Below are positions 43,878 to 64,000 of a DNA stretch of 64,000 bases, piece after piece. The stretch covers positions 40,192 to 104,191 of IMG/VR virus record IMGVR_UViG_3300016476_001169; one strand, 5' to 3'. The position numbers and the translations under genes are program-made. The stretch's first letter is position 1, and each line of letters starts with the position of its first letter. This stretch comes from a virus. The notes under the pieces were generated by a model. That model saw only the letters and a list, made by a program, of their open reading frames with translations. It had not been told where the DNA came from and did not search any database.

Positions 43878-44198
43878 ATTTAAAATAAATTGGGGCCCAA
43901 ATTGTGATTTAAAATGGGAGTTTAAAAAATAAAAATAAGGGGCCACCGCGTTCGATGGGAGTCACAAAAAAATGGGGGTGAGGAAACCCCCTTCCTTATG
44001 GTACCTAAATTAAGACATACCCCCCCCTGTTTTTCTATACAAAACGCTATAGTATGTAGTATGTATGCTTATACTTATAGTATTGTAATGTATTGTATGT
44101 ATTAATGCTTTATGATGTATGATGTATTGATCTAATAGCGCATAGATCTATCTGCTGGGATTTTTATCTTAAAAGATTATAGTTTATTCTATAATAGT

Positions 44199-44447
44199 AT
44201 GAACTTCGATTACCAAACCCTGACGACGATTCTGCTCACCGCTGTGCTTTGCTCCATCACTTTCTATGTGTTGATAGCGGGTTTCGATTGGAAACCAAAA
44301 CACGCAGTATTCGCTTCGCTCTTTGCACCAGCTGTCGTGCCAGTTTTCATGACCTGCCTTGCAATCTACATCATTGGCGACACGCTTCGTTCATTCTGCA
44401 ACTATGCAATCAATCTGGGTTCACCAAAGCAGGTTCGTCGGGCGTAG
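44199..44447 (+). CDS. small membrane protein (cassette)
   Basis: ATG directly after element; two hydrophobic segments. Confidence 0.7.
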   Translation: MNFDYQTLTTILLTAVLCSITFYVLIAGFDWKPKHAVFASLFAPAVVPVFMTCLAIYIIGDTLRSFCNYAINLGSPKQVRRA

Positions 44448-44533
44448 GGATTATACCATAATTTACACTTTGTAGATTATGGGCTAGGCCCCCTTTTTTA
44501 TATTAAATTCTGCTTATTGGGTTCTATAATAGT

Positions 44534-44629
44534 ATGCAAAAACACTTTACCACCATCATTGATTCTGCTTTCCTTTTTGTTATGGTTTGTTGGATAGGTG
44601 CATTTATGGAGTGGGTATTATCATTATAA
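44534..44629 (+). CDS. 31-aa hydrophobic peptide (cassette)
   Basis: MQKHFTTIIDSAFLFVMVCWIGAFMEWVLSL fills the space between two elements. Confidence 0.55.
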   Translation: MQKHFTTIIDSAFLFVMVCWIGAFMEWVLSL

Positions 44630-44695
44630 CCCTTTGTGGGTTCTGGCTCATCGGGGGATTTTATCTTAAAACTTATTAATGGGTTCTATAATAGT

Positions 44696-44824
44696 ATGAG
44701 AATCAGCAATCGTACAATCAACAATGGTCGCCAACTTGTTCTGCAGACTCGCCGGAACTGCTGGGTAGTCACTTTGCGTCCACATCGTCTGCTCTTTGCA
44801 CATCGTTCCCAATCATCGTTCTAG
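44696..44824 (+). CDS. 42-aa basic peptide, paralogue of 45636
   Basis: MRISNRTINNGRQ...CWVVTLRPHRLLFAHR. Confidence 0.7.
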   Translation: MRISNRTINNGRQLVLQTRRNCWVVTLRPHRLLFAHRSQSSF

Positions 44825-44862
44825 TTTTATCTTAAAAGATTATTGTAGGAGTCTATAATAGT

Positions 44863-44937
44863 ATGGAAATCATCATCGCAGACACTCTCGCCGTTGTTGT
44901 TCTTGTTTTCGGTCTTATCTTCGGTAAGTCCAAGTAA
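44863..44937 (+). CDS. 24-aa single-TM peptide, paralogue of 45562
   Basis: MEIIIADTLAVVVLVFGLIFGKSK. Confidence 0.6.
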   Translation: MEIIIADTLAVVVLVFGLIFGKSK

Positions 44938-44973
44938 ACATCTTAAAAACTGAATATAGGATTCTATAATAGT

Positions 44974-45096
44974 ATGATTACAATCAATAAAGCATCTCAT
45001 GGTGGTTACAACGTTTCGCTCGATGGAACTTTTCTAGCATGGTTCCCAAAAATCAAAACCGCTCGCGACTTTGCGAAGGGTAGGCTTTTTCACTAA
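44974..45096 (+). CDS. 40-aa peptide, GGxNV..DG family
   Basis: MITINKASHGGYNVSLDGTFLAW... Confidence 0.65.
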   Translation: MITINKASHGGYNVSLDGTFLAWFPKIKTARDFAKGRLFH

Positions 45097-45161
45097 GCCT
45101 TTGTAGGCTTTGGGGCGTTGCTGGTTTTATCTTAAAAAGTGTTATTGGGTTCTATAATAGT

Positions 45162-45491
45162 ATGAAAAACTTTGAAACTGTTGTGGTTCGTGGCATTGCC
45201 ACTTTCAACTTTGAACTGATGCTTGATTCTGATACTTTTGAGAATGTGTGCAATGAACTTGATTTGAATGCGGAAGATTATCGCACATTCACTGAAGAGC
45301 AATGGCTCAAGGTTCGTAAGAATCTCAAAGATACTACTTTTGACAACGAAGAACACATTGAAGTTGTAGATTTGTATGATGCTTCACGTATTTCAGTTGA
45401 TGAAGTGACTCTACAAACTGACTTTAATGACATTTCAGTTATCACTTATGAGATTGGTGATAAAGTTCATTCAATCGAACTAGATGTATAA
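45162..45491 (+). CDS. acidic hypothetical protein (cassette)
   Basis: ATG after element; stop just before next element. Confidence 0.75.
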   Translation: MKNFETVVVRGIATFNFELMLDSDTFENVCNELDLNAEDYRTFTEEQWLKVRKNLKDTTFDNEEHIEVVDLYDASRISVDEVTLQTDFNDISVITYEIGDKVHSIELDV

Positions 45492-45561
45492 AGTAACACT
45501 TTGTACATCTTGGGGCGGCCCCATTTTTATCTTAAAAGAAGAAAGTTTATTCTATAATAGT

Positions 45562-45636
45562 ATGGAAATCATTCTCTCAACCTTAGTTGTCGCCGCTGTT
45601 GTTGTTATCGTTCTTGGACTCATTGCGAGCAAGTAA
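45562..45636 (+). CDS. 24-aa single-TM peptide
   Basis: MEIILSTLVVAAVVVIVLGLIASK. Confidence 0.6.
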   Translation: MEIILSTLVVAAVVVIVLGLIASK

Positions 45637-45776
45637 TGAAACTGAGTCACCGCTTAATCAATAATGGGCGTCAGTTTATCTTTCAGAATCATACTGATTG
45701 CTGGGTTTTGACAATCAAGCCACACAGACTTTTAATAGCACATAGATTCCAGCCGCTTTGGACTTGGAATCATTAA
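45636..45776 (+). CDS. 46-aa peptide, paralogue of 44696
   Basis: MKLSHRLINNGRQ...CWVLTIKPHRLLIAHR; TAATG coupling. Confidence 0.7.
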   Translation: MKLSHRLINNGRQFIFQNHTDCWVLTIKPHRLLIAHRFQPLWTWNH

Positions 45777-45842
45777 GTCTTTGTAGGCTTTGGGCTTAGG
45801 GGCGAAAATATCTTAAAAACAAAAGGGGGCTTCTATAATAGT

Positions 45843-46094
45843 ATGAACGAATATCCTGGTTACAAGAATCGCGCCACTTGGGTTGCAAGCGTCTGCCTCG
45901 GTGAATCAATCAATCAACTTCGTGCTGATTATCCTGAGATGACAATCTTGGATGTAAAGACAGAATGTCTTGAGTTTCTACTCAATCATTCTAATCACAA
46001 GTTTGTCAATCAGTTTCTCCATGTGGTTGCTGATGAGATTGATTGGGAGTTTCTCTACAATGACAATCTTAAAAGCCAACTTGCAAAGGTTTAA
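45843..46094 (+). CDS. hypothetical protein, Y.GY.N.ATW family
   Basis: N-terminus similar to 50367. Confidence 0.75.
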   Translation: MNEYPGYKNRATWVASVCLGESINQLRADYPEMTILDVKTECLEFLLNHSNHKFVNQFLHVVADEIDWEFLYNDNLKSQLAKV

Positions 46095-46180
46095 GCCTTT
46101 GTAAGTTTTGGGGCAATGGGGGCCAGATCTTTGGCCCCCTTATTTTTATATTAAAAAATCATAATAAGTTCTATAATAGT

Positions 46181-46312
46181 ATGCAAGACACATTTAATGA
46201 CAACTTCGACATCGCCGCGCTCACCGTTGCTTTTGCCAACCAGGACACAGATTATGACGCACAACCTTTTCATCTTGATGTAGTTGATTACAACCATGCT
46301 TGCCGCTTTTAG
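46181..46312 (+). CDS. 43-aa acidic peptide (cassette)
   Basis: MQDTFNDNFDIAAL...; followed by hairpin. Confidence 0.55.
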   Translation: MQDTFNDNFDIAALTVAFANQDTDYDAQPFHLDVVDYNHACRF

Positions 46313-46394
46313 CGCGGCATGGTTGCAGGTTTAATTATGTTTTGATGTTAATAAATTTTTATCCTTAAAAATAAAAATGGGGCTCTATAGTATT

Positions 46395-46580
46395 ATGAAC
46401 TTCGCAGACTTTCTTTTGTCATCTGGCGTCAGTATTATTGACGGTGCATTCTCAGCTAATGGTATGAAGTATTTTTTCATCAACAATGATGTATTTAGAG
46501 TTAGTCAAATCGGTTCTATTATTCGTGAGTTTAAAGTATCCCAATCAGAGATTAATGCAATCATTTTGTCTTTGAGATAA
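46395..46580 (+). CDS. hypothetical protein (cassette, divergent element)
   Basis: CTATAGTATT-ATG start. Confidence 0.6.
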   Translation: MNFADFLLSSGVSIIDGAFSANGMKYFFINNDVFRVSQIGSIIREFKVSQSEINAIILSLR

Positions 46581-46645
46581 GTCTTTGTAGACTTTGGGGG
46601 CCTGGTGATTTTATCTTAAAAACTATTATTGGATTCTATAATAGT

Positions 46646-47002
46646 ATGAATACTATTGGAAACTACAACCTAGAACACACCATTTACCGCTTCTTGCCAG
46701 TGACTCATGTCAAGTCCTTGGAGCGATTCCTTGAGCAGGGTATTCATCCCGGTGATTTCATGGCTCGTGTGCTTGAGAATAATCTTGTTGGTGCTGTTGC
46801 CAACGGAGATGAAAACTCCAAGCAACATCTTTGCGACTTGGTTATGTTTATCCATAACCACTTGCCAGGTCGGTTCCTCAAGCCGGGTTGTGTCGATGAT
46901 TTTATCAATGGCACTGTCCGATACACTGTAACCGAGGGTGGTTACTGTGACTGGATTGAAACTGACCCTATCAAACAAAAGTATATTTCTGCAGAGAATT
47001 AA
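46646..47002 (+). CDS. hypothetical phage protein (cassette)
   Basis: GIHPGDFMARVLENNL motif. Confidence 0.75.
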   Translation: MNTIGNYNLEHTIYRFLPVTHVKSLERFLEQGIHPGDFMARVLENNLVGAVANGDENSKQHLCDLVMFIHNHLPGRFLKPGCVDDFINGTVRYTVTEGGYCDWIETDPIKQKYISAEN

Positions 47003-47067
47003 ACCTTTGTAGATTTTGGGGTACCCCCGCTTTTGTCTTAAAAAGTGCTTTTGGATTCTATAGTAGT

Positions 47068-47349
47068 ATGGAAACTTCTGAAGACTTCAATGGCAACCCC
47101 GTATCTGGTTTGTATGCGAACATGAGCGATGCGCTTCATTTGGAGATATCAGCGATGTGCAAGCAGCATGGCTGGCGCTTATCAGTGACTCACGGTGACG
47201 AACACGCCGAGTATGGCTTCTGGACAGTTTGGAGTGATGAGTTTGGGCTGATATGCAACGAAGTCAGCAGGTCGCATTGTTATTACATCCTCAAGGGTGT
47301 CACCATAGGTTTGATGATGCACAAGGCAAAAGAAAACCAATTTGTGTAA
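47068..47349 (+). CDS. hypothetical protein (cassette)
   Basis: element-ATG to stop-element. Confidence 0.7.
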   Translation: METSEDFNGNPVSGLYANMSDALHLEISAMCKQHGWRLSVTHGDEHAEYGFWTVWSDEFGLICNEVSRSHCYYILKGVTIGLMMHKAKENQFV

Positions 47350-47421
47350 ACCTTTGTAGGTTTTGGGGTGTCGGGCCCCAAAAATTTTATCTTAAAATAT
47401 CCTGCATGGTTCTATAATAGT

Positions 47422-47700
47422 ATGAAAACATTCATTATCAAAAACGTGCTGGTTGAGTCGAAGTTGCCCGGTCTGGGTTCTGTCAAGAGTAAGACTGTCA
47501 ATACGATGGTTCCACCCTGTGATTGGGAGCAGTTGAATACTCACCTTTTTGAGATGTTCAAGGGGTTCCTTGAAAACTTTACTGATGTAAAGTTTGATTC
47601 TCTGGTGATGTCTTTTGAGTATTCTGACTCTGAGACACCTGACTTGATTCATCAAGTCGACCATGGTTTTGATTCTGAAGGTGATATCTACTGTTGCTAG
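47422..47700 (+). CDS. hypothetical protein (cassette)
   Basis: start reassigned to ATG after element. Confidence 0.7.
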   Translation: MKTFIIKNVLVESKLPGLGSVKSKTVNTMVPPCDWEQLNTHLFEMFKGFLENFTDVKFDSLVMSFEYSDSETPDLIHQVDHGFDSEGDIYCC

Positions 47701-47779
47701 GTATCACCTTTTAACCTTTTGTAGGTTTTGGGCCGCCCCCGCTTTTGTCTTAAAAAGTGCTATTGGATTCTATAGTAGT

Positions 47780-48016
47780 ATGAAAGACCTCATTTTCCAA
47801 GACGACATCTACTTCACCCTCACTGCCGAGCAAGCCGAATGGGCTGTCGCTTCGTGGACTAAGGTTCTCCTCCATCGGGGTATGATACCCGGTCGCATTC
47901 CTTCTGAGAGTGAAATCTCCCGATTCAAAACGGCGATTCCGGGAGTTCTCAACGGCTCCCCGCAGGAAGACCTCGGTTACATCCTGCATTCGGCTTCTAA
48001 GGTGCATTGGGATTAA
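47780..48016 (+). CDS. hypothetical protein (cassette)
   Basis: start reassigned to ATG after element. Confidence 0.7.
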   Translation: MKDLIFQDDIYFTLTAEQAEWAVASWTKVLLHRGMIPGRIPSESEISRFKTAIPGVLNGSPQEDLGYILHSASKVHWD

Positions 48017-48083
48017 CCCTTTGTAGACTTTGGCCTGTCGGGCGGGATCCATCTTAAAAAGGGGCATAGGATTCTATAATAGT

Positions 48084-48278
48084 ATGAAAAACTTTCCACT
48101 TATCACCAAGTACATTGATGAAATCGGCATTGACGTAAACCAGTCAGAACGCCTGTTTCTCAGCATTCTTGAAGACCGCCTTTCAGATGTTGAGAATGGC
48201 AGATGCACTGTTGATGATGCAGTGGGAGAAGCCTACGACTTCTACGCTGAGGCAATGAATAGTTGTGACGACTATTAG
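48084..48278 (+). CDS. acidic hypothetical protein (cassette)
   Basis: start reassigned to ATG after element. Confidence 0.7.
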   Translation: MKNFPLITKYIDEIGIDVNQSERLFLSILEDRLSDVENGRCTVDDAVGEAYDFYAEAMNSCDDY

Positions 48279-48344
48279 TCCTTTGTAGGCTTTGGGGGAC
48301 TCCCGGGATTTATCTTAAAAACTATTATTGGATTCTATAGTAGT

Positions 48345-48578
48345 ATGGAAACCTCTTCATTCACCTTCATCAACATCTGCGACCTCTCCCGCCAACTCAT
48401 GCCGGAACAAAAAACCATTGCGGATTTTTACACCGCATACAACCTTGTGCAGGAGTGGGTCAAAAACAATGATGCCGTGATGTACGAGCATGAGAAGTAC
48501 CACTTCTCACGTTACGAGGCGATGGAACTCGCCACTGCGGCGGGTGTCAAAACAATCGTGGTACACGATTGTTCCTAA
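48345..48578 (+). CDS. hypothetical protein (cassette)
   Basis: element-ATG to stop-element. Confidence 0.7.
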   Translation: METSSFTFINICDLSRQLMPEQKTIADFYTAYNLVQEWVKNNDAVMYEHEKYHFSRYEAMELATAAGVKTIVVHDCS

Positions 48579-48713
48579 GACTTTGTAGGTTTTGGGGCGT
48601 CGCCTTTACTAAATAAGCTAAAGAAAACATAATTTAGCAAAGGATTTAGTAAAGGATTTAGTAAAGGGCCCCCTATTTTTATCTTAAAACTTATTAAACT
48701 GTTCTATAATAGT

Positions 48714-48968
48714 ATGAACTTTCACTCAATCAAATCAATCGTCGCCGCATCGGACATCGCCTTTTCGCTTGATACCTCGCTGGATGATTTTCTGAACGAA
48801 TCTGACAAGTGGACTTTTGGAGACGCTCCTCATGTGCTTGTCAAGCCTTTTGTTTTTGAGCGGGCGTTTTATGACTACTTTGGCGACCAGGATGATGTTG
48901 TCGCAAAGTTCAAGCCGCTTTTCAATGAGATTTTGGAAGCCGAAGCCATGATTGATGTTGCACAATAG
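48714..48968 (+). CDS. acidic hypothetical protein, paralogue of 63577-63834
   Basis: ASD...T(F/W)GDA...ID shared. Confidence 0.7.
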   Translation: MNFHSIKSIVAASDIAFSLDTSLDDFLNESDKWTFGDAPHVLVKPFVFERAFYDYFGDQDDVVAKFKPLFNEILEAEAMIDVAQ

Positions 48969-49039
48969 GCTTAAGCCTTTGTGCATTCTGGCCAGTCCCC
49001 GGTTTTATCTTAAAAAGTGTCATTGGGTTCTATAATAGT

Positions 49040-49177
49040 ATGAGTTATACAATCCAACAATGCAATACAGGTGGTTTCAACGTTCTTTGTGACGGTCAAG
49101 TTATCGGATGGTGTCTCGCACCATGGCAATCACGAACTGTGATTAAAAAGCACATTGATGCTAATCCACTCCCTTAG
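49040..49177 (+). CDS. 45-aa peptide, GGxNV..DG family
   Basis: MSYTIQQCNTGGFNVLCDGQVIGW... Confidence 0.65.
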   Translation: MSYTIQQCNTGGFNVLCDGQVIGWCLAPWQSRTVIKKHIDANPLP

Positions 49178-49218
49178 TTAGTTTTCTCTTAAATAACTTT
49201 ATTGGAATCTATAATAGT

Positions 49219-49356
49219 ATGAACATTCAAGACATTATTGCCATCATCTTTTTTATACCTGTTGGTTTTGTGGCTATTACGTCAGCAGTATGTTTGCTTT
49301 GTATGCCTTTTCATTATCTTTCAGATTATATTCATTTAAGAAGTAAGACTTTGTAA
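49219..49356 (+). CDS. 45-aa membrane peptide (cassette)
   Basis: hydrophobic; stop falls inside the next CTTTGTAA box. Confidence 0.55.
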   Translation: MNIQDIIAIIFFIPVGFVAITSAVCLLCMPFHYLSDYIHLRSKTL

Positions 49357-49429
49357 ATTTTGGGGGCATGGGCGGTTTTATCTTAAATCATTGTTGTTAG
49401 GTTCTATAGTAGTATAAGAGGTGAAGCAA

Positions 49430-49660
49430 ATGACAGGACTTGAAGCACTGGATTTATTGAGAAAAGGTAATGTCAAAGTTAAGCGTTCTGAATGGCACAA
49501 GGATGAATACTTGGAGACTTTTGATGGTAAAGATGTATATCCTTCCACAGAGTATGACCGCGAGCGTGGTGACAAATGCCATTATCCAAGTGATGCTCAA
49601 AGCTTAACAATGAACATATTAGATGATTTTCTTAAAGATGACTGGGAGGTAGTAAAATGA
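49430..49660 (+). CDS. DUF2829/Tad2-like protein
   Basis: EALDLLRKG...KRSEW...DFLKDDWEVV; GAGGTG SD after element. Confidence 0.65.
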   Translation: MTGLEALDLLRKGNVKVKRSEWHKDEYLETFDGKDVYPSTEYDRERGDKCHYPSDAQSLTMNILDDFLKDDWEVVK

Positions 49661-49741
49661 GAGGTACAAGGTTAACCCTTTGTACCTTTTGGCGTATCCC
49701 CGGTTTCTTCTTAAAAATCTGCCATTATGTTCTATAGTAGT

Positions 49742-49900
49742 ATGAAATCAATGACAATCACGAGGCGCGACATCGAGAAGGCGCGCAAAAACAACCCTTC
49801 TACCATTCCTGCATCTGAGCGTCCTTGGGCGCGCCCAACTGTATACAAGTCGGGGCGTGAATATCAACGCAACGCAAAGCATCGGAACCGAGAAGAATAA
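49742..49900 (+). CDS. 52-aa basic peptide, paralogue of 58788-58949
   Basis: MKSMTITRRDIEKARK...VYKSGREYQRNAKHRN. Confidence 0.75.
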   Translation: MKSMTITRRDIEKARKNNPSTIPASERPWARPTVYKSGREYQRNAKHRNREE

Positions 49901-49965
49901 TACTTTGTAGGTTTTGAGGGGCCCCATTTTTTATCTTAAAAACTATTATTAGATTCTATAGTAGT

Positions 49966-50148
49966 ATGGAAAACAAAGTTGTCACGGACTGGAACGCAGT
50001 CGCCCCTTCTGCTCATGGTACTCTTGTTGGTCTCAAGTTGATTCTTACGGGACTTGAGAATCATGATTATCCTGTGAATGTTCTCAAAAAAGTGCTGGAA
50101 GGTTATGAAAAGCAGATTGCAGAATACCTTGCAGAAAAGAAAGATTAA
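49966..50148 (+). CDS. hypothetical protein (cassette)
   Basis: ATG after element. Confidence 0.65.
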   Translation: MENKVVTDWNAVAPSAHGTLVGLKLILTGLENHDYPVNVLKKVLEGYEKQIAEYLAEKKD

Positions 50149-50150
50149 TC

Positions 50151-50300
50151 ATGGAAGATTTTAATGTAGAAATCCGACCTTCCGCCCGTGGTGGTTGGAA
50201 TCTTTATATCGATGGTGATTTTTGTGGCTATGACAAGTCCAAGAAAGTTCTAAAAGAACTTGCACAAGAAATGATTAAGAATGAGCATGGACTTTATTAA
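50151..50300 (+). CDS. 49-aa peptide, GGxN...DG family
   Basis: MEDFNVEIRPSARGGWNLYIDGDFCGY...; second gene of cassette. Confidence 0.6.
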   Translation: MEDFNVEIRPSARGGWNLYIDGDFCGYDKSKKVLKELAQEMIKNEHGLY

Positions 50301-50366
50301 GTCTTTGTAAATTCTGGCCCGCAGGGCGGTTTTATCTTAAAACCTATTATTGGATTCTATAATAGT

Positions 50367-50597
50367 ATGAATAATGCAACCTATAACGGCTATGCCAACT
50401 ACGCTACTTGGAACGTCTCAGCATACATTACCAATGACGAAGGTTTGTATAACTTGGTAAAGCGTTATGACACTTGGGATAAGTGTAAAGAAGCGTTGAT
50501 TATGTGTGGTGTAACCCAAACCTGTGATGACATCTCTTTTGATGACCCAGATTTGGACACAAACGAACTTGATGAGATGCTGGCAGAACTTTCATAA
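50367..50597 (+). CDS. hypothetical protein, YNGY.NY.TWNV family
   Basis: recurrent phage motif; related to 45843. Confidence 0.75.
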   Translation: MNNATYNGYANYATWNVSAYITNDEGLYNLVKRYDTWDKCKEALIMCGVTQTCDDISFDDPDLDTNELDEMLAELS

Positions 50598-50680
50598 GTT
50601 GCCAGCATTTTTTAGGCTTTGTAAATTCTGACCCACTGGGCGGTTTTATCTTAAAAAAGATTATTATTCCCTATAATAGT

Positions 50681-51052
50681 ATGAATACTGCAATGAAAAT
50701 CCAAATCCATCCAAACGCTTGTGCTAACTACATCGCCCGTTGCTACCGTCACAATCGTCATTCGCAGAATATGCTTCACAATGCGGCTTTTGCTGATAAA
50801 CTTCGCAAGGTTCAGGGTCAATGGTTGGAAGTTGACACCGAGCATCTTTTCGCAGACCAGTTTAATACTGTGCCTATTGAAGGTGTAACAGAGAATGGAT
50901 TGCGTGTAATGCAGTCAGATGTTGTTTCAATCGTTAATGATGTGCGTAATAATGTCGTAAAGTGTCAATGGTGCTACGGTTACGACAAAGATAATGATGG
51001 AAAGTGCGATAAATGCGGAAAAGATGACTATTTATCGCCTTTAATGCCATAA
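50681..51052 (+). CDS. hypothetical protein with C-terminal zinc finger
   Basis: CQWC...CDKC. Confidence 0.75.
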   Translation: MNTAMKIQIHPNACANYIARCYRHNRHSQNMLHNAAFADKLRKVQGQWLEVDTEHLFADQFNTVPIEGVTENGLRVMQSDVVSIVNDVRNNVVKCQWCYGYDKDNDGKCDKCGKDDYLSPLMP

Positions 51053-51124
51053 ATTAACACTTTGTGGCTTCTGACCCGCTGGGCGATTTTATCTTAAAAA
51101 GATTCTACTGCATTCTATAATAGT

Positions 51125-51364
51125 ATGAAAAGAATGACCATTGCCGAAGCGAAGCGTATCTGTTTGGAGCGAGATGGCTCCCTGCCGAGAATCGGCTACT
51201 CCCGTGACGTTGTGACTCGCGAAGAGCAGGTCGAAGTCACCAACTATTGTGAAGGTCCAAAGTTTTATCGGACTACCACAAAAGTCAACTATACACTCGT
51301 CAACGCAGGTGGTACTTTCAAAGTGCAAAAGTACACTCACCCTTCAGTTCCTCCACGGTATTAA
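51125..51364 (+). CDS. hypothetical protein (cassette)
   Basis: element-ATG to stop-element. Confidence 0.65.
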   Translation: MKRMTIAEAKRICLERDGSLPRIGYSRDVVTREEQVEVTNYCEGPKFYRTTTKVNYTLVNAGGTFKVQKYTHPSVPPRY

Positions 51365-51430
51365 TACTTTGTGGATTCTGGGACATCCCCCGGTTTTATC
51401 TTAAAAAGTATTATTGGGTTCTATAATAGT

Positions 51431-51832
51431 ATGAACGAAATCTTTATTCTCCAGTCCTCCGAAGTCGATTCCCTTGGTGCTTGCTCCTACGGCACCCTCC
51501 GCTCTGTTGACCTGTTGCCACGCTTGGCTAACTATCTCAGCATTGCCCTTGACACAATCGAGGTTCGCTTTGAGAATGCTGGTCAGGCTCTCAAAGACTT
51601 TGAGCAAGGTTTTGTTGCAGAATACCGCCACATTGTGGCAGATGCCGTTGAGTTTCACGAACTCAATGCAGATGAATACGGTAGTGCATACCCTGAATCT
51701 GCCGAGATGGATGCACAAGAGATTATTGTGTCATTGTTTGACGCTTTAGACCAACTTTCGCCTGATGGTCAATACTTTGGCTCACATCCCGGCGATGGTA
51801 GCGACTTTGGCTACTGGGAGAATGAGTTTTAA
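51431..51832 (+). CDS. acidic hypothetical phage protein
   Basis: GTLR..DL...YFGSHPGDGSDFGYW motif. Confidence 0.75.
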   Translation: MNEIFILQSSEVDSLGACSYGTLRSVDLLPRLANYLSIALDTIEVRFENAGQALKDFEQGFVAEYRHIVADAVEFHELNADEYGSAYPESAEMDAQEIIVSLFDALDQLSPDGQYFGSHPGDGSDFGYWENEF

Positions 51833-51980
51833 TGTTAAATAACATAATAATGTGCACTATTATGTTATTATTCATCGCTTTTTACATCTATCTAGGTTTT
51901 ATTATTAAATATAAGACTTTGTAGATGTTGGCCAGGCCCCAATTTTTATCTTAAATATTATTATCGCATTCTATAATAGT

Positions 51981-55688: not shown

Positions 55689-55744
55689 ACTATTATAGAA
55701 GCCCCCTTTTATTTTTAAGATGTTTCGACCAGATCACCCACCTT

Positions 55745-56016: not shown

Positions 56017-56334
56017 TTAACCTTGCTGCATTCGCTCTTTTGACGCTTTTTCTGCTTCACTGATAACTGCATACCAGCGGGCGGAAATAGCATCATTCTT
56101 ATCCCTTGAATACCACATTCGATTATCTGGACACCACTTATCTTCAGTTTTTAACATCCAATAAGCAGTTCGTTTCCAAAGAATCCAAACAAAAGCGGCA
56201 CAGTTGCAGATAGAAGCAGACCAGCCTGCGACACCATCCAACTTTAGAACTGTATTAATCAAATACATGAACATAATATAGGGGATAGCCGCTTCAAAAA
56301 CGCTAACCAAGTTGATTTTGAGTGCTTTAACCAT
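56017..56334 (-). CDS. membrane-associated hypothetical protein
   Basis: second gene of cassette, adjacent to upstream stop. Confidence 0.6.
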   Translation of the reverse strand: MVKALKINLVSVFEAAIPYIMFMYLINTVLKLDGVAGWSASICNCAAFVWILWKRTAYWMLKTEDKWCPDNRMWYSRDKNDAISARWYAVISEAEKASKERMQQG

Positions 56335-56335
56335 G

Positions 56336-56689
56336 TTACTTACCTTTCAACTCGGAAAATCGAGTTGGAACAAAAGACGCATCATAAGAATAGGGGAAGA
56401 TAGTTTCGATTTGGTTAATCATGCTTGACAAATCAAAGTACGCTGGCGTGGTTTCGCCTTTGTTCACAATGTAACCAAAGAGTTCAAACTCTTCCTCAAA
56501 CTTAGTACCTTCGATAATGTACAAAGTGTCGCCAGTAAAAATATCATCAATCTTACATTGAACGATAGGGTCAGATTCGAGAATCTGGGAATCCAGTTCT
56601 GGCAACTTATTCAGCACACTAACTGGAATCAAAAACTTATCGGACTGCTTAACGATGTAATCGGCGTAGGTCTCAAGTGCAATGTTCAT
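56336..56689 (-). CDS. DUF2958-like protein
   Basis: LP.L..Q...DPIV..K...YIIE...LFGYI...YFDL pattern. Confidence 0.55.
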   Translation of the reverse strand: MNIALETYADYIVKQSDKFLIPVSVLNKLPELDSQILESDPIVQCKIDDIFTGDTLYIIEGTKFEEEFELFGYIVNKGETTPAYFDLSSMINQIETIFPYSYDASFVPTRFSELKGK

Positions 56690-56774
56690 ACTATTATAGA
56701 ACGCCACACTCGTTTTTAAGACAAATTTTAACACTTTGTAGGGGTTGGGGCGTCGCCCCCAATAATAACCCCGT

Positions 56775-57590
56775 TTAGGGGTTATTATTGTACCATTCAT
56801 CAACACTTATTGAGATTTCAGCGGGTGCAATACACGGGATGTGGCTAGTTGCTTCCATCCAATAGGAATAATCGGCTTTTTGCAACGCTTCTTTTGCTCT
56901 TTCGTCTATTAACTTGATGAATGCTGTTGTTCTGGGGTTATAATCTAAACCTTTAAGTATTCTACCTGCTCCATCACCATGAGTTCGGAATGCTAAGTCT
57001 GGATTTTCATCTTTTTTAACAAACTTAAACTTATCGGAGCGGTAACTTTGTCTTTTAGGTCTAGTTTCCCCCTTGACTCTTTGCCAGATTTGAAACTCTG
57101 TTCGGAGTCTACCCATTTCGTAAACCACTCCTTGGGGAGTTTGGAAACTTACTTCTGGGCATTGTTCGGTATAAACACGAACAAACTCTGGGTGTAATCT
57201 ATCTTCAATAGATGGTTTTCTAAATGATGGTGGGATTATAAATGCGATAACATCGCACGATTCAGCACATTTATTAAAAGTTTTGATTGCCAATGCACAA
57301 GCACGACCAAAAGGTGGATTACCAACCGCTATTAGGTGCTGTTTATCTAGATTTAGCGAGAAAAAATCTGCTTGTAATACATCTGGATGCCTTGGTTCAA
57401 TGTCATAAGCCAGAATCTCTTTTACTTCTGCCTCTTTTAATGCCCTCAAAAAACTACCGCCACCTGCTGTAGGTTCGAGAAATGTATGGTCTTTGCCAAC
57501 TATACCGATTAGAATGTCTGTAAAGTGCTTTGCAACACTATCTATTGTATAGTATTGTTCTGCACCTTGCTTTCGTGGATTTCCTGCCAT
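56775..57590 (-). CDS. N6-adenine/N4-cytosine DNA methyltransferase
   Basis: EQYYT, LEPTAGGGSF (motif I), DIEP, DFF, GNPPFG (motif IV), IAFIIP. Confidence 0.85.
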   Translation of the reverse strand: MAGNPRKQGAEQYYTIDSVAKHFTDILIGIVGKDHTFLEPTAGGGSFLRALKEAEVKEILAYDIEPRHPDVLQADFFSLNLDKQHLIAVGNPPFGRACALAIKTFNKCAESCDVIAFIIPPSFRKPSIEDRLHPEFVRVYTEQCPEVSFQTPQGVVYEMGRLRTEFQIWQRVKGETRPKRQSYRSDKFKFVKKDENPDLAFRTHGDGAGRILKGLDYNPRTTAFIKLIDERAKEALQKADYSYWMEATSHIPCIAPAEISISVDEWYNNNP

Positions 57591-57593
57591 TGA

Positions 57594-58118
57594 TTATTCC
57601 TTATCTTTGAATGGTAAATCTATTATCGTGCGATTTTCGTTGAAAATAGACTCAAACTTTACATTTTCTGCATCTATTAGTTCCAAATCTTTGGCTGGAA
57701 GAAGAACAAATCGGTATTTCCATTGTGGCATTTCGGAAATGTCCACTACCATAAAGTAATCATAAGATGAAAAGTACTTATCGGCAATGCTTTTGATTTC
57801 TTCTGCGGTTCTGCGACTCTTAGAATCGAACAGGGAGGATTTGCCAACTCGGATTTTAGTTTTGCTAGTTTTGGTATTGGCGGTTTTCATTTGAATAGAC
57901 TTCAACGAGCCGTCCACAGATACCCAAAGGTCAGCAGATTCTCCCTGCGTAGTAGCATCAGAAGTTGTATTGTCGAACTGGAATGCAATGATGTCTTCCA
58001 AAGCAACACCGCATTGGCGACCACTGCAAAACCACTCAATGGTTTGCTCTTGAGTCATGCCTGGCACACGGAATGAAGGCATTTGCTGTGTGTAGATGGT
58101 GTTGATTTCGAGATTCAT
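57594..58118 (-). CDS. putative PD-(D/E)XK endonuclease
   Basis: G..LE...ADL...IQMKT motif order; immediately upstream of MTase. Confidence 0.5.
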   Translation of the reverse strand: MNLEINTIYTQQMPSFRVPGMTQEQTIEWFCSGRQCGVALEDIIAFQFDNTTSDATTQGESADLWVSVDGSLKSIQMKTANTKTSKTKIRVGKSSLFDSKSRRTAEEIKSIADKYFSSYDYFMVVDISEMPQWKYRFVLLPAKDLELIDAENVKFESIFNENRTIIDLPFKDKE

Positions 58119-58194
58119 ACTAGTATAGAAGCCCCCTTTTATTTTTAAGATGTTTATACATTTTTGGGGCCCTGTGGCCAGAAGTTACAAAGAA

Positions 58195-58563
58195 CTATAT
58201 TTCAAGTTGCCAGAACTCATCGGCTCTAATCGAATATTTGCACCACTCTGTTTTATTGATTGAGAAATAAGACAGGTCAACATAACCTGACTCAGTGTGC
58301 AAGTAATCCTCGATTGTGCCATCGAGTTCAGCCTCTTCGACCATTTCTTCATCAAGAAGAATCAAGTGACCGTACTTAGAATCAGCGAACGCCTCAATGG
58401 CATCCTGCTCATGGTAAGCCTCCACAACAAATGGAGTAGACACATTGCCCAAACCAGCGTGGACGAGGAAGGTATTCCCAAAGTTTCTACCTGGGTTGAT
58501 GATTTCTACGTTCTCAAAAATCCAATCGTTTGCTTTGCCAGCGGCTGTGAGTGTTGTATTCAT
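58195..58563 (-). CDS. acidic hypothetical protein (cassette)
   Basis: VVEAYHEQDAIE motif; start reassigned. Confidence 0.7.
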   Translation of the reverse strand: MNTTLTAAGKANDWIFENVEIINPGRNFGNTFLVHAGLGNVSTPFVVEAYHEQDAIEAFADSKYGHLILLDEEMVEEAELDGTIEDYLHTESGYVDLSYFSINKTEWCKYSIRADEFWQLEI

Positions 58564-58648
58564 ACTATTATAGAATCTAATGATAGTTTTTAAGATAAAA
58601 CTGGGGGAGCAGCCAGAAGCCACAAAGTGTTATCCTTGTGGCTTTGAA

Positions 58649-58777
58649 CTATGCCATAACATTACCTGATTCAAAATCAAATTGTAACTGTGCAGAAATA
58701 TCATAATCATCGTATGAATTATCTACAACGTTATTATCACTAGTCGGTTCTGCGTCGTTGTTTTGCGTATCTTCCAT
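58649..58777 (-). CDS. 42-aa highly acidic peptide
   Basis: AGGGGG SD; MEDTQNNDAEPTSDNNVVDNSYDDYD... Confidence 0.5.
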   Translation of the reverse strand: MEDTQNNDAEPTSDNNVVDNSYDDYDISAQLQFDFESGNVMA

Positions 58778-58787
58778 AAATTTCCCC

Positions 58788-58949
58788 CTAATCTGAGATT
58801 TGATTTTTATGTTTTGAATGACGGCAATATTCTTTGCCAGACTTATAAACAGTAGGGCGAGACCACGGACGTTCTGACGCAGGAATCACTGTTGGGTTAG
58901 CCTTACGAGCCTTTTCTATGTCACGTCTTGTAATAGTTACCGTTTTCAT
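58788..58949 (-). CDS. 53-aa basic peptide, paralogue of 49742
   Basis: MKTVTITRRDIEKARK...VYKSGKEYCRHSKHKN. Confidence 0.75.
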   Translation of the reverse strand: MKTVTITRRDIEKARKANPTVIPASERPWSRPTVYKSGKEYCRHSKHKNQISD

Positions 58950-59007
58950 ACTATTATAGAGCCCCCTTTTTATTTTTAAGATAGAATCCGCCCCCTAGGG
59001 CCAAAGC

Positions 59008-59544
59008 CTACAAAGGGTTAGTATTCAAGTTCTGTGAATCAACATAAATTTTATGTACTTCATTTATTTGAGATTGTAATGTATCTAATTTATTTTTGTC
59101 TTCAAAATAATTTTTAATGTCTTGTTTTGTTAAATATCCATATTCACGAGGCATAAGCCTATTGGTGAAATAAGCCCAAAATAAATAAAAAATTAAAATT
59201 GTAGTAATTACAACAAATAATTTGACAAAAATATTATTCACCAAAAGCAAAGGCATGAATGGCGTAGAAACAAGAAAAGACAAAGCAAAAAATCCACACC
59301 ATCCGTCTGAGTTTAACGTGAGTTTCTTTTTTGTGCCATCTGAGTTATAATAATAATTTATTTTACTAAACTCATATATTTTATTATAATTTTGAATATT
59401 ATCAAGCAGGTCTGAATAAGAAATACCAAATTTATCAAATGCAATTATATTATATGCATCTAATTTCATGGCTGGTTTAATACCATCTAAGAGTCTAGTG
59501 TCTTCTACAGAAGACCATGATTTGCCAGTGCCACATGAAAACAT
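59008..59544 (-). CDS. AT-rich membrane protein (cassette)
   Basis: two TM segments; ATG after element. Confidence 0.65.
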   Translation of the reverse strand: MFSCGTGKSWSSVEDTRLLDGIKPAMKLDAYNIIAFDKFGISYSDLLDNIQNYNKIYEFSKINYYYNSDGTKKKLTLNSDGWCGFFALSFLVSTPFMPLLLVNNIFVKLFVVITTILIFYLFWAYFTNRLMPREYGYLTKQDIKNYFEDKNKLDTLQSQINEVHKIYVDSQNLNTNPL

Positions 59545-59622
59545 ACTACTATAGAATATAGTTACGATTTTTTAAGAAGAAATCAGGGAGGAGCCAAAAC
59601 CTACAAAGGGTTACTTTGTAGA

Positions 59623-59847
59623 TTACCATCCTTGCTCGGCTTGACGGGCGCAGATGTCACACTGATACCCGCGATGCTTATCAGCAGGGGTCAGCATATT
59701 CGGTCGCCCACAGTTTCCGCAAGGGAGGTTCCGAGGGTTGCGCTTGGATGCCGCACGAAGGGCAGAGCCACTGCGAGCAAAGCGAGTTCCATCCCCCGCG
59801 TCGAATGGGTCGTCGTCGAAGTCGTAATCGTCATCGTAATAAGCCAT
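59623..59847 (-). CDS. zinc-ribbon protein with acidic N-terminus
   Basis: LRAAS..NPRNLPCGNC...YQCDICA; GAGGAG SD. Confidence 0.75.
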   Translation of the reverse strand: MAYYDDDYDFDDDPFDAGDGTRFARSGSALRAASKRNPRNLPCGNCGRPNMLTPADKHRGYQCDICARQAEQGW

Positions 59848-59944
59848 GTCTCAATCTCCTCAAAGTTATACTATTATAGAACACAGTGATAAGTTTTAAG
59901 ATAAAAAGGGGGTGCGCCCAGAAAAAACAAAGGCTTAGATTTCT

Positions 59945-60283
59945 CTAAGCCACTGCTTCTGATTTTTGAGCCGCTTTCCAGTCGATTTGCTCAGTTTCAT
60001 CCCAAGTCATTGGGAGGTTGCATTCGACAAAGAAGGCAAACCCTTCGGCTTCAGCATCGTTGGAGTCGTAAAAGACAGCCGCTTCCTTGTACTGACCAAA
60101 GTCATGGTACTCATTTTTTACTCCAAAATAAGCACCATCGGGCTGATTGATAAAACGATTATCGAGAAACTCGACAAAACGCCGAACTTCCTTTGACATA
60201 GCGGAGAGGTAATCACCATTAGAGTTTACCTGCACACATTCTTCTTCAACAGGGGTTGGACCAAGGGTCAAATATTCTCGCAT
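59945..60283 (-). CDS. hypothetical phage protein
   Basis: LGPTP.EE.CVQV...HDFGQY motif; AGGAG SD. Confidence 0.75.
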   Translation of the reverse strand: MREYLTLGPTPVEEECVQVNSNGDYLSAMSKEVRRFVEFLDNRFINQPDGAYFGVKNEYHDFGQYKEAAVFYDSNDAEAEGFAFFVECNLPMTWDETEQIDWKAAQKSEAVA

Positions 60284-60379
60284 TATCTTATCTCCTAAAC
60301 TAGCGTTGGTTACTCTACTATAGAATAAGTTTCTATTTTTTAAGATAAAATGGGGCGGGCCCCCATAATTTACAAAGGA

Positions 60380-60526
60380 TTAAAAGTTATCTTCAATCAC
60401 TTCGTAAAATAAATCGGTAGCCATCTTATACCTCAAGCTTGGATTGGTCTTAGCCAAACCTGGCTCAATGTAATCAATCCAATCAAAGCACTGTTCGATA
60501 ACGGGTTTTTTATTTGTAAGTGTCAT
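60380..60526 (-). CDS. 48-aa peptide (cassette)
   Basis: MTLTNKKPVIEQCFDWIDY... fills space between elements. Confidence 0.6.
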   Translation of the reverse strand: MTLTNKKPVIEQCFDWIDYIEPGLAKTNPSLRYKMATDLFYEVIEDNF

Positions 60527-60558
60527 ACTATTATAGAGTCCTTTATCTTATTTTAAGA

Positions 60559-60747
60559 TTAAATTACATAATTCATAAACTTTGTAATGTCGTCATGGAG
60601 CATCTTTAACTCTTCATTAGATAAATCTAAATATTCAGCCAAATCATCGAATCGCTCTTTAGAAGAAAGAAGCACACAAAAGCCTTCTAGAATTACCAAT
60701 AAATCGTGTTCTGTTTTATTTGACAGAAAAGAAAGTGTTTCAGACAT
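60559..60747 (-). CDS. hypothetical protein
   Basis: second gene of cassette. Confidence 0.55.
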   Translation of the reverse strand: MSETLSFLSNKTEHDLLVILEGFCVLLSSKERFDDLAEYLDLSNEELKMLHDDITKFMNYVI

Positions 60748-60748
60748 T

Positions 60749-61096
60749 TTACCACCATCCATGTAATACGTTACCAGCATCAGCGTGAACCCTAAAGATA
60801 GTTTTCAAATCTTGAAACTCTTCAGGTCTGATTTGCCAAGTACAAGTAGCATCCTCGGTGTAAATAGAGAAATCAAACGCCTCAAGGGCATCTGCCATGG
60901 CAGAGATTGTCTCATTGTCAATCCACTCTTGATAAAGACTTACACCCGTTGCAAGTTCTACCAAGTCATTGTATACCTTCCCACGGAAGGAGTCATTGCC
61001 TACACCTGACAACATACCGCCACAAAGACTGAAGTCGCCATCAACACTTGCACGTTCTGTGCGATTTTGCTCATACCAAAAACAATCAAGTCCCAT
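60749..61096 (-). CDS. hypothetical phage protein (MGLD...GWW family)
   Basis: MGLD start, SFRGKVY; AGGAG SD. Confidence 0.75.
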   Translation of the reverse strand: MGLDCFWYEQNRTERASVDGDFSLCGGMLSGVGNDSFRGKVYNDLVELATGVSLYQEWIDNETISAMADALEAFDFSIYTEDATCTWQIRPEEFQDLKTIFRVHADAGNVLHGWW

Positions 61097-61188
61097 TTTC
61101 AAATCTCCTACTATTATAGAACATTATGGTATTTTTTAAGATAAAAAAGGGGGGATGGCCAGAATTTACAAAAGGTTAAAAGGTCGGC

Positions 61189-61449
61189 TTATTGATGCCG
61201 ACCTTCTTCCATCCACCACATGTGAGCGGCTTCCTCATTCCAATGAGAGTAGGCTTCAATGCCCAGCATCTCACGATTCTCGACCTCGCCCCACTCGTCG
61301 TAGGGGTCATCGTCATAATAATCGCAATCATCAGACTCTTGGTCTGCGTAGTCGAGAATGTTTTGCTCTACAAGAGCCTCAGCCGCCATCTCAAGGGCGA
61401 TTTCATCTTGAAGGGTCTCGTATTCGTAGGTGTCGTAAAAGTCTTCCAT
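61189..61449 (-). CDS. very acidic small protein
   Basis: D/E-dominated 86 aa; ATG after element. Confidence 0.7.
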   Translation of the reverse strand: MEDFYDTYEYETLQDEIALEMAAEALVEQNILDYADQESDDCDYYDDDPYDEWGEVENREMLGIEAYSHWNEEAAHMWWMEEGRHQ

Positions 61450-61545
61450 ACTATTATAGAAAACCATAACACTTTTTAAGATAAAACCGAGGGCGGCCCA
61501 AAATTTACAAAGCATTAAAAAAGAGGAGATTTCTCTCCTCTTCTG

Positions 61546-61866
61546 TTAGACAGTTGCCGTTCGGCGAGTCGGCGTAGCACTCTTACTAGCCTTTACAGCC
61601 TTGCGCTTGGGAGTTGATACTACAGGTGCAACTGCAGAGTTGTCAACAACCAGTTCACCATTGCGAATGTCGAGCAACTGATGAAGCAACTTACCCTTCG
61701 AGCGAGCAGACACGACAGATACAATGTCGGCAATCTCTGTGTCCGAAAGTTCAAACCGATAAGTGTTTCCACCAGACTTGAACGTCACATCCACAGTGGA
61801 TGCCTCGGAATCCACCACAATCTTCTCTGCCATCGTCGAATCGAAGTTCGTAAAAATCGCTGTCAT
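61546..61866 (-). CDS. KTSC-domain-like protein with basic tail
   Basis: ST..E.I......V.F.SG.TY......A.SKGK; AAGGA SD. Confidence 0.6.
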   Translation of the reverse strand: MTAIFTNFDSTMAEKIVVDSEASTVDVTFKSGGNTYRFELSDTEIADIVSVVSARSKGKLLHQLLDIRNGELVVDNSAVAPVVSTPKRKAVKASKSATPTRRTATV

Positions 61867-62058
61867 AATCTTTTCTTGTTTCCTTTTAGGTTTTTCTTTG
61901 ATACTACTATAGGAAAGAGATGAAGGTTTTTAAGATGGATTTTGGATTACAAATGGATCGTTTTGCCATAAAACAATTACAACAGCTGAAAAACGATTAC
62001 AAATGCAGCATTTTGCAATAAAACAATTAGGGGCCAGGGCCCCAAAATTTACAAAGGG

Positions 62059-62385
62059 TTATTCTGAATCAGATTCATAATTACCCTCTTCATCTTTATG
62101 GACAACTATTGGAGTGTATTTACCAACATAGGAGCCGATTACATTATAATCTATCCATTCCATCGCTTGTTCCACAGGGTCTTCATCCCATTCACAATCT
62201 TCCCTAAACTGGCTGGCGAAACAATCAACCAACAAGTCATAATCATAGCAAGCAACGGAAACACTTTCACCTTCACGCTCCAAATCATAAGTGCCTATAA
62301 GAGCAGAATCACAATCTGGTAAAACAAGTGCTTGATTTTTCGAAAGTAAATCTAATGTTTCATCAATAGAATAAAAATTAATCAT
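62059..62385 (-). CDS. acidic hypothetical phage protein
   Basis: D.ALIG...YDY...AMEWIDYNVIGSYVG..TP; ATGA overlap with uvsE. Confidence 0.75.
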   Translation of the reverse strand: MINFYSIDETLDLLSKNQALVLPDCDSALIGTYDLEREGESVSVACYDYDLLVDCFASQFREDCEWDEDPVEQAMEWIDYNVIGSYVGKYTPIVVHKDEEGNYESDSE

Positions 62386-63287
62386 ACTGTAACCTTTGCT
62401 CTTTCTAGAATGTCTAAAATAGCATAATCTTTGCTTTTTAGTTCAACATCCCAAACAACATCGTAGCCGTAAGAATCAGGAATACCTTGTGCCATGTCGG
62501 CATGATTACGAGTATCGCCCTTGCCTTCGGAATAATGGAATACTGGTGTTGTATTCCAAGTAGAATACGCTAGTTCGAATGCGTTTTTGTCAGATAAATC
62601 ACCATGTAGAAACTTATGGTGCAATGTATCAAAGGTAATAGGAATGTTATGTGGCTCATAATAATACTTTACGAGATTCTTAACGCTCCAAACGCCCTTG
62701 ATATTATCATTAACCTCAATAACCAATCTATTCTTAACAGAATCAGAAAGTTTATCAAAGGTAGACATAAAAGCATTCGAAATAACATCTGGTTCACCAT
62801 CTTTGCGACAGTGAATGTTTAACGGTGCAGAATAATCTTGCGGAAGACCAAACCAGTCAAAAATCTTAGCATGGGTTTCCAAATCGAGAATCGAGTTTTG
62901 GATTGCCCTTTGGTCATTAGTTGTGAGAGTAATGTATTCACTAGGATGTGCAGAAACTTTAAGGTCATTATTTGCAATAAACTTTTTTATCTTATCTATT
63001 TCGTATTTAATAAAACCGTACTCTGGCAAATCTTCGACTTGCATCAATACCTCTGGATGATTCAACACAGGCATTAAATCGCTGGAAACTCTATAACCCT
63101 TGATACCAGAATCAACACAATGTTGCATTACTTTATGTGTAACATTGAAGTTGTTTCGGATAATCCCCGACAACTTGAGCAGGGCATCTTCACGCTTCAT
63201 AGAAGAGAAGGACTTATATGTCATGGTGCGGAACTTGACACCCTGCTCACCGAGAATGTTGGAAATACAACAAAGGGAAAGTTTCAT
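62382..63287 (-). CDS. uvsE: UV-damage endonuclease (UvsE/UvdE)
   Basis: LCCI, YRVSSDL, SAHP, NIH, RLVIE, PITFDTLHH, FHYSE, HAD, DVELKSKDYA. Confidence 0.92.
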   Translation of the reverse strand: MKLSLCCISNILGEQGVKFRTMTYKSFSSMKREDALLKLSGIIRNNFNVTHKVMQHCVDSGIKGYRVSSDLMPVLNHPEVLMQVEDLPEYGFIKYEIDKIKKFIANNDLKVSAHPSEYITLTTNDQRAIQNSILDLETHAKIFDWFGLPQDYSAPLNIHCRKDGEPDVISNAFMSTFDKLSDSVKNRLVIEVNDNIKGVWSVKNLVKYYYEPHNIPITFDTLHHKFLHGDLSDKNAFELAYSTWNTTPVFHYSEGKGDTRNHADMAQGIPDSYGYDVVWDVELKSKDYAILDILERAKVTV

Positions 63288-63344
63288 ACTATTATAGTTT
63301 CTTTCATTATGTTTTTAAGATAAAAATGGGGCTGCCCCCAAAAT

Positions 63345-63572
63345 TTACAAAGGGTTATTTTCTTCGATAATCCAGTTTTCTGCTAGAACATCTTCAATTT
63401 TAAATGAATACCAAGCCCAGCCTATTTCAGCACCACATGACCTGCGCCAATGAAATTCCAATTTATTATCGTCGATTTTTACAGATATAACTGCTTTACG
63501 ACCATGGTATTCCTTTGTCCTTGAAGCAATTTTACCTTCACGAAGGGCTGGCATAACTTCTTCTAATAACAT
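63345..63572 (-). CDS. DUF2829/Tad2-like protein
   Basis: EEVMPALREGK...R...EDVLAENWII. Confidence 0.6.
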   Translation of the reverse strand: MLLEEVMPALREGKIASRTKEYHGRKAVISVKIDDNKLEFHWRRSCGAEIGWAWYSFKIEDVLAENWIIEENNPL

Positions 63573-63576
63573 AATC

Positions 63577-63834
63577 CTAGTTCTCCAAGTCGATGTAAAT
63601 GGCAAAGTCAAGGTTCTTCACTTTATTAAGAACCAACTCAATCTGTCGTGCGATTTGATTATCATCGCTAAAACAATCTTCTAGCATAAAAGTCATAAAG
63701 TCAGTCGATATCATCGTGCGATTTGCATCACCCCAAGTCACAGGAGGGTCGGAGTCCAAAAGCAACTGCCAAGCGTCTGGGCATCCTATGAAAAGGTCAG
63801 AAGCCTCGATAAATGAACAAGTTTTGATTTCCAT
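63577..63834 (-). CDS. acidic hypothetical protein, paralogue of 48714
   Basis: ASDLF...TWGDA...YIDLEN. Confidence 0.7.
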   Translation of the reverse strand: MEIKTCSFIEASDLFIGCPDAWQLLLDSDPPVTWGDANRTMISTDFMTFMLEDCFSDDNQIARQIELVLNKVKNLDFAIYIDLEN

Positions 63835-64000
63835 ACTATTATAGACTCCTGACCCCTTTTTTAAGATGATTACAGTTCGATTCCGAATTCCTTCATTACA
63901 GGAAGAACCTCTTTTGCTGGCTTATTGTAAAAGCCTTCTGCGATAAGGTGATTATTAATCTTCTCTCGCAATTCAATGGTTTCTTGTTGGGCGGCTTTTA

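Follow-up and report, generated by a model that had tools for sequence, protein, structure and literature searches.

A repeated stop-to-start module heads the genes of a 20-kb phage array and coincides with gene-order breaks between relatives

In a contig of an uncultured freshwater tailed phage, one gene after another is headed by the same intergenic element, which raises the question of whether this element is only a recurrent promoter or also the site at which the genes are moved. The element lies in a stretch of 64,000 nt (positions 40,192 to 104,191 of IMG/VR record IMGVR_UViG_3300016476_001169), called the window below, to which coordinates refer unless another sequence is named. The original prediction, made from these letters alone, had described a single series of one-gene cassettes delimited by a multi-box element and had read it as a gene-capture platform with an anti-defence library. 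We consider it probable that the element is a regulatory cassette resembling the promoter-early stem-loops (PeSLs) of T4-type phages, and that it doubles as a stretch of short homology by which genes are shuffled, the phage itself being not demonstrably T4-like.

A relaxed scan of the 104-kb contig revealed 50 promoter modules at 44166-63867 and none in the other 84 kb, in agreement with the recurrent element first noticed there; 44 of them are fused to an ATG and 6 are led by a Shine-Dalgarno (SD) sequence. The box 2 motif described below gave 54 matches at ≤2 mismatches vs 13.7 expected, and the exact bipartite pattern gave 16, all within the interval, with 0 for the reversed control. Instead of a single series, the modules form two convergent arms, on the plus strand to 52490 and on the minus strand from 63867 to about 52540, which meet near 52500. 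The minus arm runs past the end of the contig, and relatives carry it further.

The module measures about 80 nt from stop to start and consists of a TAA, box 1 (CTTTGTAG-NN-TTTGG), a short GC hairpin with a T-run, box 2 (TTTTATCTTAAAA), a spacer of 14-15 nt, box 3 (TTCTATARTAGT), which is near-palindromic, and the ATG. Counted from the 8-nt core of box 2, the spacer is 15-16 nt long in 630 of 634 copies. Box 1 was found in 31-36 of the 44 fused modules, and its onset lies 30-31 nt ahead of box 2 in most modules; it stands exactly 2 nt past the upstream stop codon in 17 of the 24 scorable cases of the window and in 158 of 291 over all loci, and many of the remaining cases retain a spare TAA at that spot. 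From the spacer, the box 1 distance and the stop-codon offset, the module is a stop-to-start unit of fixed length, and the description of genes trimmed between elements holds. The GC stretch, which had been called variable, is nearly constant in length and folds weakly (mean ΔG of −6.1 kcal/mol vs −3.3 kcal/mol in control 38-mers); in folding calculations, ΔG was ≤ −5 in 29 of 44 modules vs 24% of controls. As this weak fold is followed by the T-run of box 2, the hairpin looks like an attenuator, and 33 terminator-like sites were predicted in the region vs 14.9 expected. The module ATGs open reading frames (ORFs) of 23-301 aa, a range that extends beyond the 24-180 aa given for most of the cargo. 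Codons 2-13 after these ATGs vary mostly at third positions (152 vs 74 and 57), which indicates that the module ATG is the true start codon.

A pattern scan of metagenomes yielded 93 loci, of which 70 carry at least two modules and together contribute 600 further copies, mostly from lake and estuary assemblies. A pattern scan of IMG/VR produced one match, judged to be due to chance; the only IMG/VR relative (G001), being a fragment, does not contain the array. Cassette by cassette, the relatives show 70-95% nucleotide identity to the window, and a few contigs are collinear with it at about 100% identity and therefore belong to the same population. The 644 module-headed ORFs of the 70 related contigs fall into only 65 families on a largely shared backbone, which gives no support to an open-ended capture library. 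On this backbone, the order strings differ by block transpositions, single-cassette moves, duplications and swaps. Support by at least two independent contigs was found for 80 of 100 adjacencies, and 20 of 46 families have at least two well-supported downstream neighbours.

Cassette order is not identical between related phages, and the breaks are concentrated in the modules, as had been proposed: they cover 18% of the array length and hold 57% of the internal homology ends. In pairs that share the upstream gene only, identity is 67-89% through box 1 and drops to background level in the hairpin, and in pairs that share the downstream gene only, box 3 is kept and the 3′ half of the spacer is weakly kept; the middle of the module goes with neither neighbouring gene. 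An arm-switched family-21 cassette can be aligned up to the end of its box 1, beginning 12 nt ahead of its ATG. Family 23 lies between direct repeats, listed in Table 1, that on sequence grounds are one insertion scar in the window. In L018 and L070, the orphan 27-nt tail of the right-hand repeat is again found with family 23, at a second site, and at a third site the family lies between two copies of the box 1 variant that belongs to family 25. A different junction is present in a contig of the same population as the window (L014:1-127), where 46570-46696 is joined to 46273 onward inside coding sequence; this is probably an assembly artefact and could be a duplication or a circle.

These breakpoints have to be weighed against a module that is a recurrent promoter and nothing else, in which case illegitimate recombination would occur anywhere and selection for intact genes would leave breakpoints in modules. 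The modules occupy nearly all intergenic space and the backbone order is largely conserved, both as this explanation would have it. Several further observations weigh against the PeSL-like cassette. The exact matches between module pairs are short, with a median of 14 nt, a maximum of 32 and ≥20 nt in 32 of 946 pairs, so that exchange would be short-homology recombination; the right junction of one scar lies 27 nt inside coding sequence and not in a module; the breakpoints in modules could partly reflect selection against broken genes; the hairpins are weak in one third of modules; and metagenome assemblies can be mis-joined at repeats, though most alternative adjacencies recur in independent assemblies. 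On the other hand, the junctions preserve the register and fixed length of the module, inserts are bordered by direct repeats built of module parts, and arm-switching cassettes keep one orientation relative to the promoters of their arm, none of which favours a promoter alone, and we regard this explanation as rather unlikely. The fifth base of the hexamer in box 3 is A in 73% of window modules, in 93% of those in L054/L079 and in 25-35% in most other relatives. Such a parallel, lineage-wide change of one base suggests exchange among module copies, which also speaks against a mere promoter.

The arm switches involve families 13, 14, 21 and 23, which are single-copy, are found in either convergent arm and are co-oriented with the arm promoters at every locus. 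By our inference, an arm switch that keeps polarity is predicted by the mini-circle model of Arbiol et al. and not by unequal crossing-over. No circular contigs were found among the related loci.

Trimming flush to a built-in TAA and ATG could also point to an integron-like platform, in which a site- or structure-specific enzyme from the unseen ~70% of the genome would cut and join at box 1 or box 3. The strong conservation of box 1, to which no role is assigned, an HNH gene in the extended array of a relative, and a contig that amounts to only ~29% of the genome (CheckV estimate) would all suit such an enzyme. However, breakpoints are spread across the middle of the module and do not fall at one position, every cassette has its own promoter, and the pool of families is small. 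The attC ends are absent, as had been stated (0 of 44 modules with RYYYAAC/GTTRRRY cores); neither an integrase nor a resolvase was found across 104 kb. We consider an integron-like platform very improbable.

The module has the sequence features of a promoter, in line with the predicted unit of terminator-like hairpin, promoter and start codon. A consensus promoter scan gave TTAAAA-16-TATAAT a score of 10 of 12, and the two-hexamer spacing of the sigma-70 family (17 ± 1 nt) is found as TTAAAA, 16-17 nt and TATART. Altogether, the 713 instances comprise 606 fused to ATG, 70 led by an SD, 20 with a leader lacking an SD and 17 lacking an ORF. In all fused copies 3 nt lie between hexamer and ATG, which begins at the fourth base, and in SD-led copies the SD often begins at this same position, as it does in the 6 copies of the window. 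In relatives, the module stands ahead of transfer RNA (tRNA) genes, a DNA ligase, an Ogg-like glycosylase gene, a conserved non-coding RNA (ncRNA) and SD-led genes. With such genes downstream, the module would act in transcription and not only in translation.

Because the start codon begins 4 nt past the hexamer, the messenger RNA (mRNA) is likely to be leaderless or to have a leader of ≤5 nt, a reading towards which we lean slightly. Fused copies have no SD and an AUG start, as in leaderless mRNAs; the −10 hexamer, which in leaderless mRNAs lies ~6-7 nt before the start, is 3 nt from it in all of them. The difficulty is that a canonical sigma-70 start, ~7 nt past the hexamer, falls beyond the ATG and inside the SD of leadered variants, and would exclude both from the transcript. 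Promoters of C. glutamicum have 3-11 nt from the −10 motif to the start site (PMC3890552), so that a start at the A of ATG would be extreme but not unheard of.

Alternatively, the start could be canonical, with translation only from upstream read-through and with box 3 as an AU-rich, SD-independent signal or a repressor site. The −35/−10 spacing is canonical, weak hairpins make read-through likely, and 97% of non-fused copies have a purine at position 7 past the hexamer. We nevertheless hold read-through to be unlikely, if not lightly dismissed, since no module lies upstream of the first plus-arm gene (44199), nothing in the mechanism would call for the exact 3-nt spacing, SDs starting at position 4 would be truncated in the transcripts of their own promoters, and every transcript would open with a long stretch that cannot be translated. 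The bias towards purines that non-fused copies show at positions 4 and 7 was set aside as evidence for a start site, as it may be inherited from fused ancestors. Finally, a phage 'integron', in which an unseen dedicated enzyme acting at box 1/box 3 excises and inserts units while a phage sigma factor starts transcription at the A of ATG and leaves all cargo leaderless, is in our view very improbable.

Other promoter types were considered and rejected. A Bacteroidota −33/−7 promoter does not match the motif, and other genes of the phage use an SD; box 2 as the true −10 (TATCTT) has a TA that is not conserved in relatives; a T7-like promoter ending in CTATA-R would have variable positions −12 to −8; and the archaeal TATA/Inr was discarded in view of replication genes that are bacterial in type. 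With the late TATG of phiKZ, which has a G start, or with the AR9 motifs (PMC5312081), the ATG would stay untranscribed. A T7-type RNA polymerase was not found on the contig, in a search whose T7 control was silent. The literature search on motif strings returned nothing relevant.

Taking the module as a PeSL-like cassette, each gene would be its own transcription unit, parted from the next by one stop-to-start module. The GC hairpin with its T-run would attenuate transcription arriving from upstream, and the bipartite promoter of box 2, spacer and box 3 would start transcription just ahead of the ATG. With ~50 repeats per genome, the module would provide a short portable homology, and recombination between modules, or via excised circles, would delete, insert and move gene units as in T4-type PeSLs. 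General recombination would be the simplest mechanism, and no dedicated capture machinery would be needed; the contig has a UvsX-like gene.

Few of the 41 cargo proteins tested have family matches (8 Pfam and 16 PHROG families in total). The clear Pfam families are four, with E-values of 4e-10 or better: UvdE, a PNKP-type phosphatase, DUF7249 and DUF3846. Defence-system models gave zero PADLOC matches among the cargo, and the anti-defence content proposed is not supported. Altogether, the original prediction is supported as regards the unit of terminator-like hairpin, promoter and start and the breaks at the element, and it is not supported as regards the capture library and its anti-defence role.

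The features of the array are collected in Table 1. In the ncRNA that follows the last minus-arm module, GTG replaces ATG in relatives, ~100 nt hardly vary among six relatives, and compensatory changes occur in the 5′ hairpin; the 3′ part of the ncRNA (52546-52618) gave an Rfam tRNA match just below threshold (28.5 bits vs 29).

Table 1. Position of the array, its modules and selected units in the window
Feature	Position	Strand	Details
Source contig			104,191-bp linear IMG/VR fragment; the window is its right-hand 64 kb
Plus-strand arm	44166..52490	+	28 modules (44166-52195): 26 ATG-fused, 2 SD-led (49380-49410, 52166-52195)
Minus-strand arm	52540..63867	-	22 modules (52790-63867): 18 fused, 4 SD-led (59902, 60346, 61142, 61936)
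Example module	45094..45164	+	TAA 45094-45096, box 1 45099-45113, GC hairpin region 45114-45124, box 2 45125-45137
Example module, 3′ parts	45138..45164	+	Spacer 45138-45151, box 3 45152-45161, ATG 45162-45164
Direct repeat of ~98 nt, right copy beside family-23 cassette	53181..53278	-	Orphan 27-nt 3′ end of family 20 and full module
Direct repeat of ~98 nt, left copy beside family-23 cassette	53617..53715	-	True 3′ end of family-20 gene and module
Largest cargo, UvdE-type UV endonuclease, 301 aa	62382..63287	-	PF03851, 2.6e-36; fused module ahead
HAD/PNKP-type phosphatase cargo, 145 aa	54844..55281	-	PF25109, 1.2e-23
Last minus-arm module and conserved ncRNA, not protein	52540..52819	-	~100 nt near-invariant in six relatives
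Micro-gene pair, two copies in swapped order	44696..45776	+	A and B each with own module; then B′ and A′ coupled by TAATG under one module

To the right of the window end, relatives extend the array, and the same promoter precedes tRNA clusters (L061, L020, L062, L016, L037, L080). The richest of these loci has 10 tRNA genes, and at least 14 different tRNA genes occur across loci. In these extended arrays the promoter also lies ahead of larger unknown genes, in addition to the ligase and glycosylase genes mentioned above, with the HNH endonuclease gene nearby. The left edge of the array (43380-44160) is ORF-poor. There, a GGTACC...poly-C motif occurs three times, TGCGGTAA iterons with a period of 11-12 nt occur five times at 43818-43878, and a GTATG-rich stretch spans 44040-44130; the region may serve as an origin or in regulation.

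The contig encodes a large terminase (TerL), a DnaE-type polymerase, a sliding clamp, a DnaB-like helicase, a RecJ-like exonuclease, a class I ribonucleotide reductase and a 1911-aa tail fibre. The search of the rest of the contig for a recombinase or a sigma factor found the UvsX-like recombinase and, outside the window, two sigma-70-family factors (ECF/SigH/FliA-like; G000:C1 9854-10447 and 12936-13631), with which the phage probably redirects the host core RNA polymerase. The ORF at genome positions 20005-20991, considered as a zinc-finger sigma factor, was discarded because it has no Pfam match and two other ORFs are the sigma factors. SD-like motifs are common before genes outside the array, with AGGA in 25 of 86 upstream windows vs ~3 from composition by our own estimate. 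Near-identity and protein searches of cultured-phage records gave no close relative and only remote best matches: the best isolate match of TerL is Microcystis phage Ma-LMM01 at 24% identity, DnaE has ~35% to its best cultured-phage match, and the reductase has 57% to Tenacibaculum phage pT24. As to the host, TerL and DnaE point rather to actinophages and the reductase to phages of Flavobacteriia. A Gp23 capsid and a family-B polymerase (DNA_pol_B) were not found in the 104-kb contig, which is a fragment and in which the Gp23 control was silent. With a DnaE-type polymerase and neither of these two proteins in the fragment, the gene content leaves the carrier phage not demonstrably T4-like. The array would be an accessory-gene region, probably pre-replicative, and its genes may be expressed early, as first proposed.

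Among known systems, integron cassette arrays likewise string together unrelated single genes, with a repeated element at their boundaries. The lake-phage array differs in that no IntI was found in the 104-kb fragment and attC core sites are missing, in that each cassette has its own promoter instead of being promoterless and read from one Pc, and in that there are two orientations; integron membership fails on every feature tested. The host-takeover module of SPO1 packs small early genes densely, together with numerous strong promoters and terminators. It resembles the array as a dense small-gene block and differs from it by its strong SDs and operons, and SPO1 is not known to have a repeated stop-to-start module or shuffling.

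Leaderless mRNAs, of which lambda cI is an example, share with the fused copies the lack of an SD, ATG as the sole start codon and a TAnnnT hexamer just upstream. Actinobacteria have many of them; in C. glutamicum they make up 33% of mRNAs (PMC3890552). The lake-phage array differs in its 3-nt spacing, at the bottom of the C. glutamicum range, and in comprising a whole gene block of a phage whose other genes use an SD. If the leaderless start is true, this block would bypass SD-dependent initiation in an otherwise SD-using phage. With a TATAAT-like hexamer fused to the start codon beside SD-led sister copies, nature offers a clean test of how start sites are chosen, and of whether phages use leaderless translation as a deliberate mode of expression.

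Mot boxes are centred near −30, and box 2 is not one of them, as its 16-17 nt to the hexamer are the canonical −35/−10 distance. This sets the module apart from the middle-promoter stem-loops (PmSLs) of nt-1 (PMC4122927), with which it shares an upstream box unlike TTGACA and a −10-like box. Whereas the PeSL had been cited as a loose precedent, it is the close one. PeSLs were described in the T4-type phages RB49/phi1, T4/PST and KVP40/nt-1. By definition, such a cassette spans the intergenic space from stop to start and comprises a stem-loop, a sigma-70-like early promoter, an SD and a start codon; the cassettes are clustered ahead of ORFans and located at sites of indels, and their excision as mini-circles has been demonstrated (PMC2839356, PMC4122927). 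Both elements are composite stop-to-start motifs with a stem-loop and a sigma-70-like promoter, both number ~50 per genome ahead of ORFans in plastic regions, and in both the indels, replacements and displacements between relatives coincide with the motif. The lake-phage module differs from PeSLs by the lack of an SD in 85% of copies, with the hexamer 3 nt from the ATG, by its fixed length and additional conserved box 1, by its two dense, uninterrupted convergent arms, and by a carrier with a DnaE polymerase in whose fragment no gp23 or family-B polymerase was found. Its hundreds of natural copies and many rearranged relatives provide a large comparative data set on the turnover of phage accessory genes. 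PeSL-type cassettes have so far been described only in T4-type phages, where they have SD leaders, and the module would represent the same logic, as a start-codon-fused PeSL variant, in a phage that is not demonstrably T4-like.

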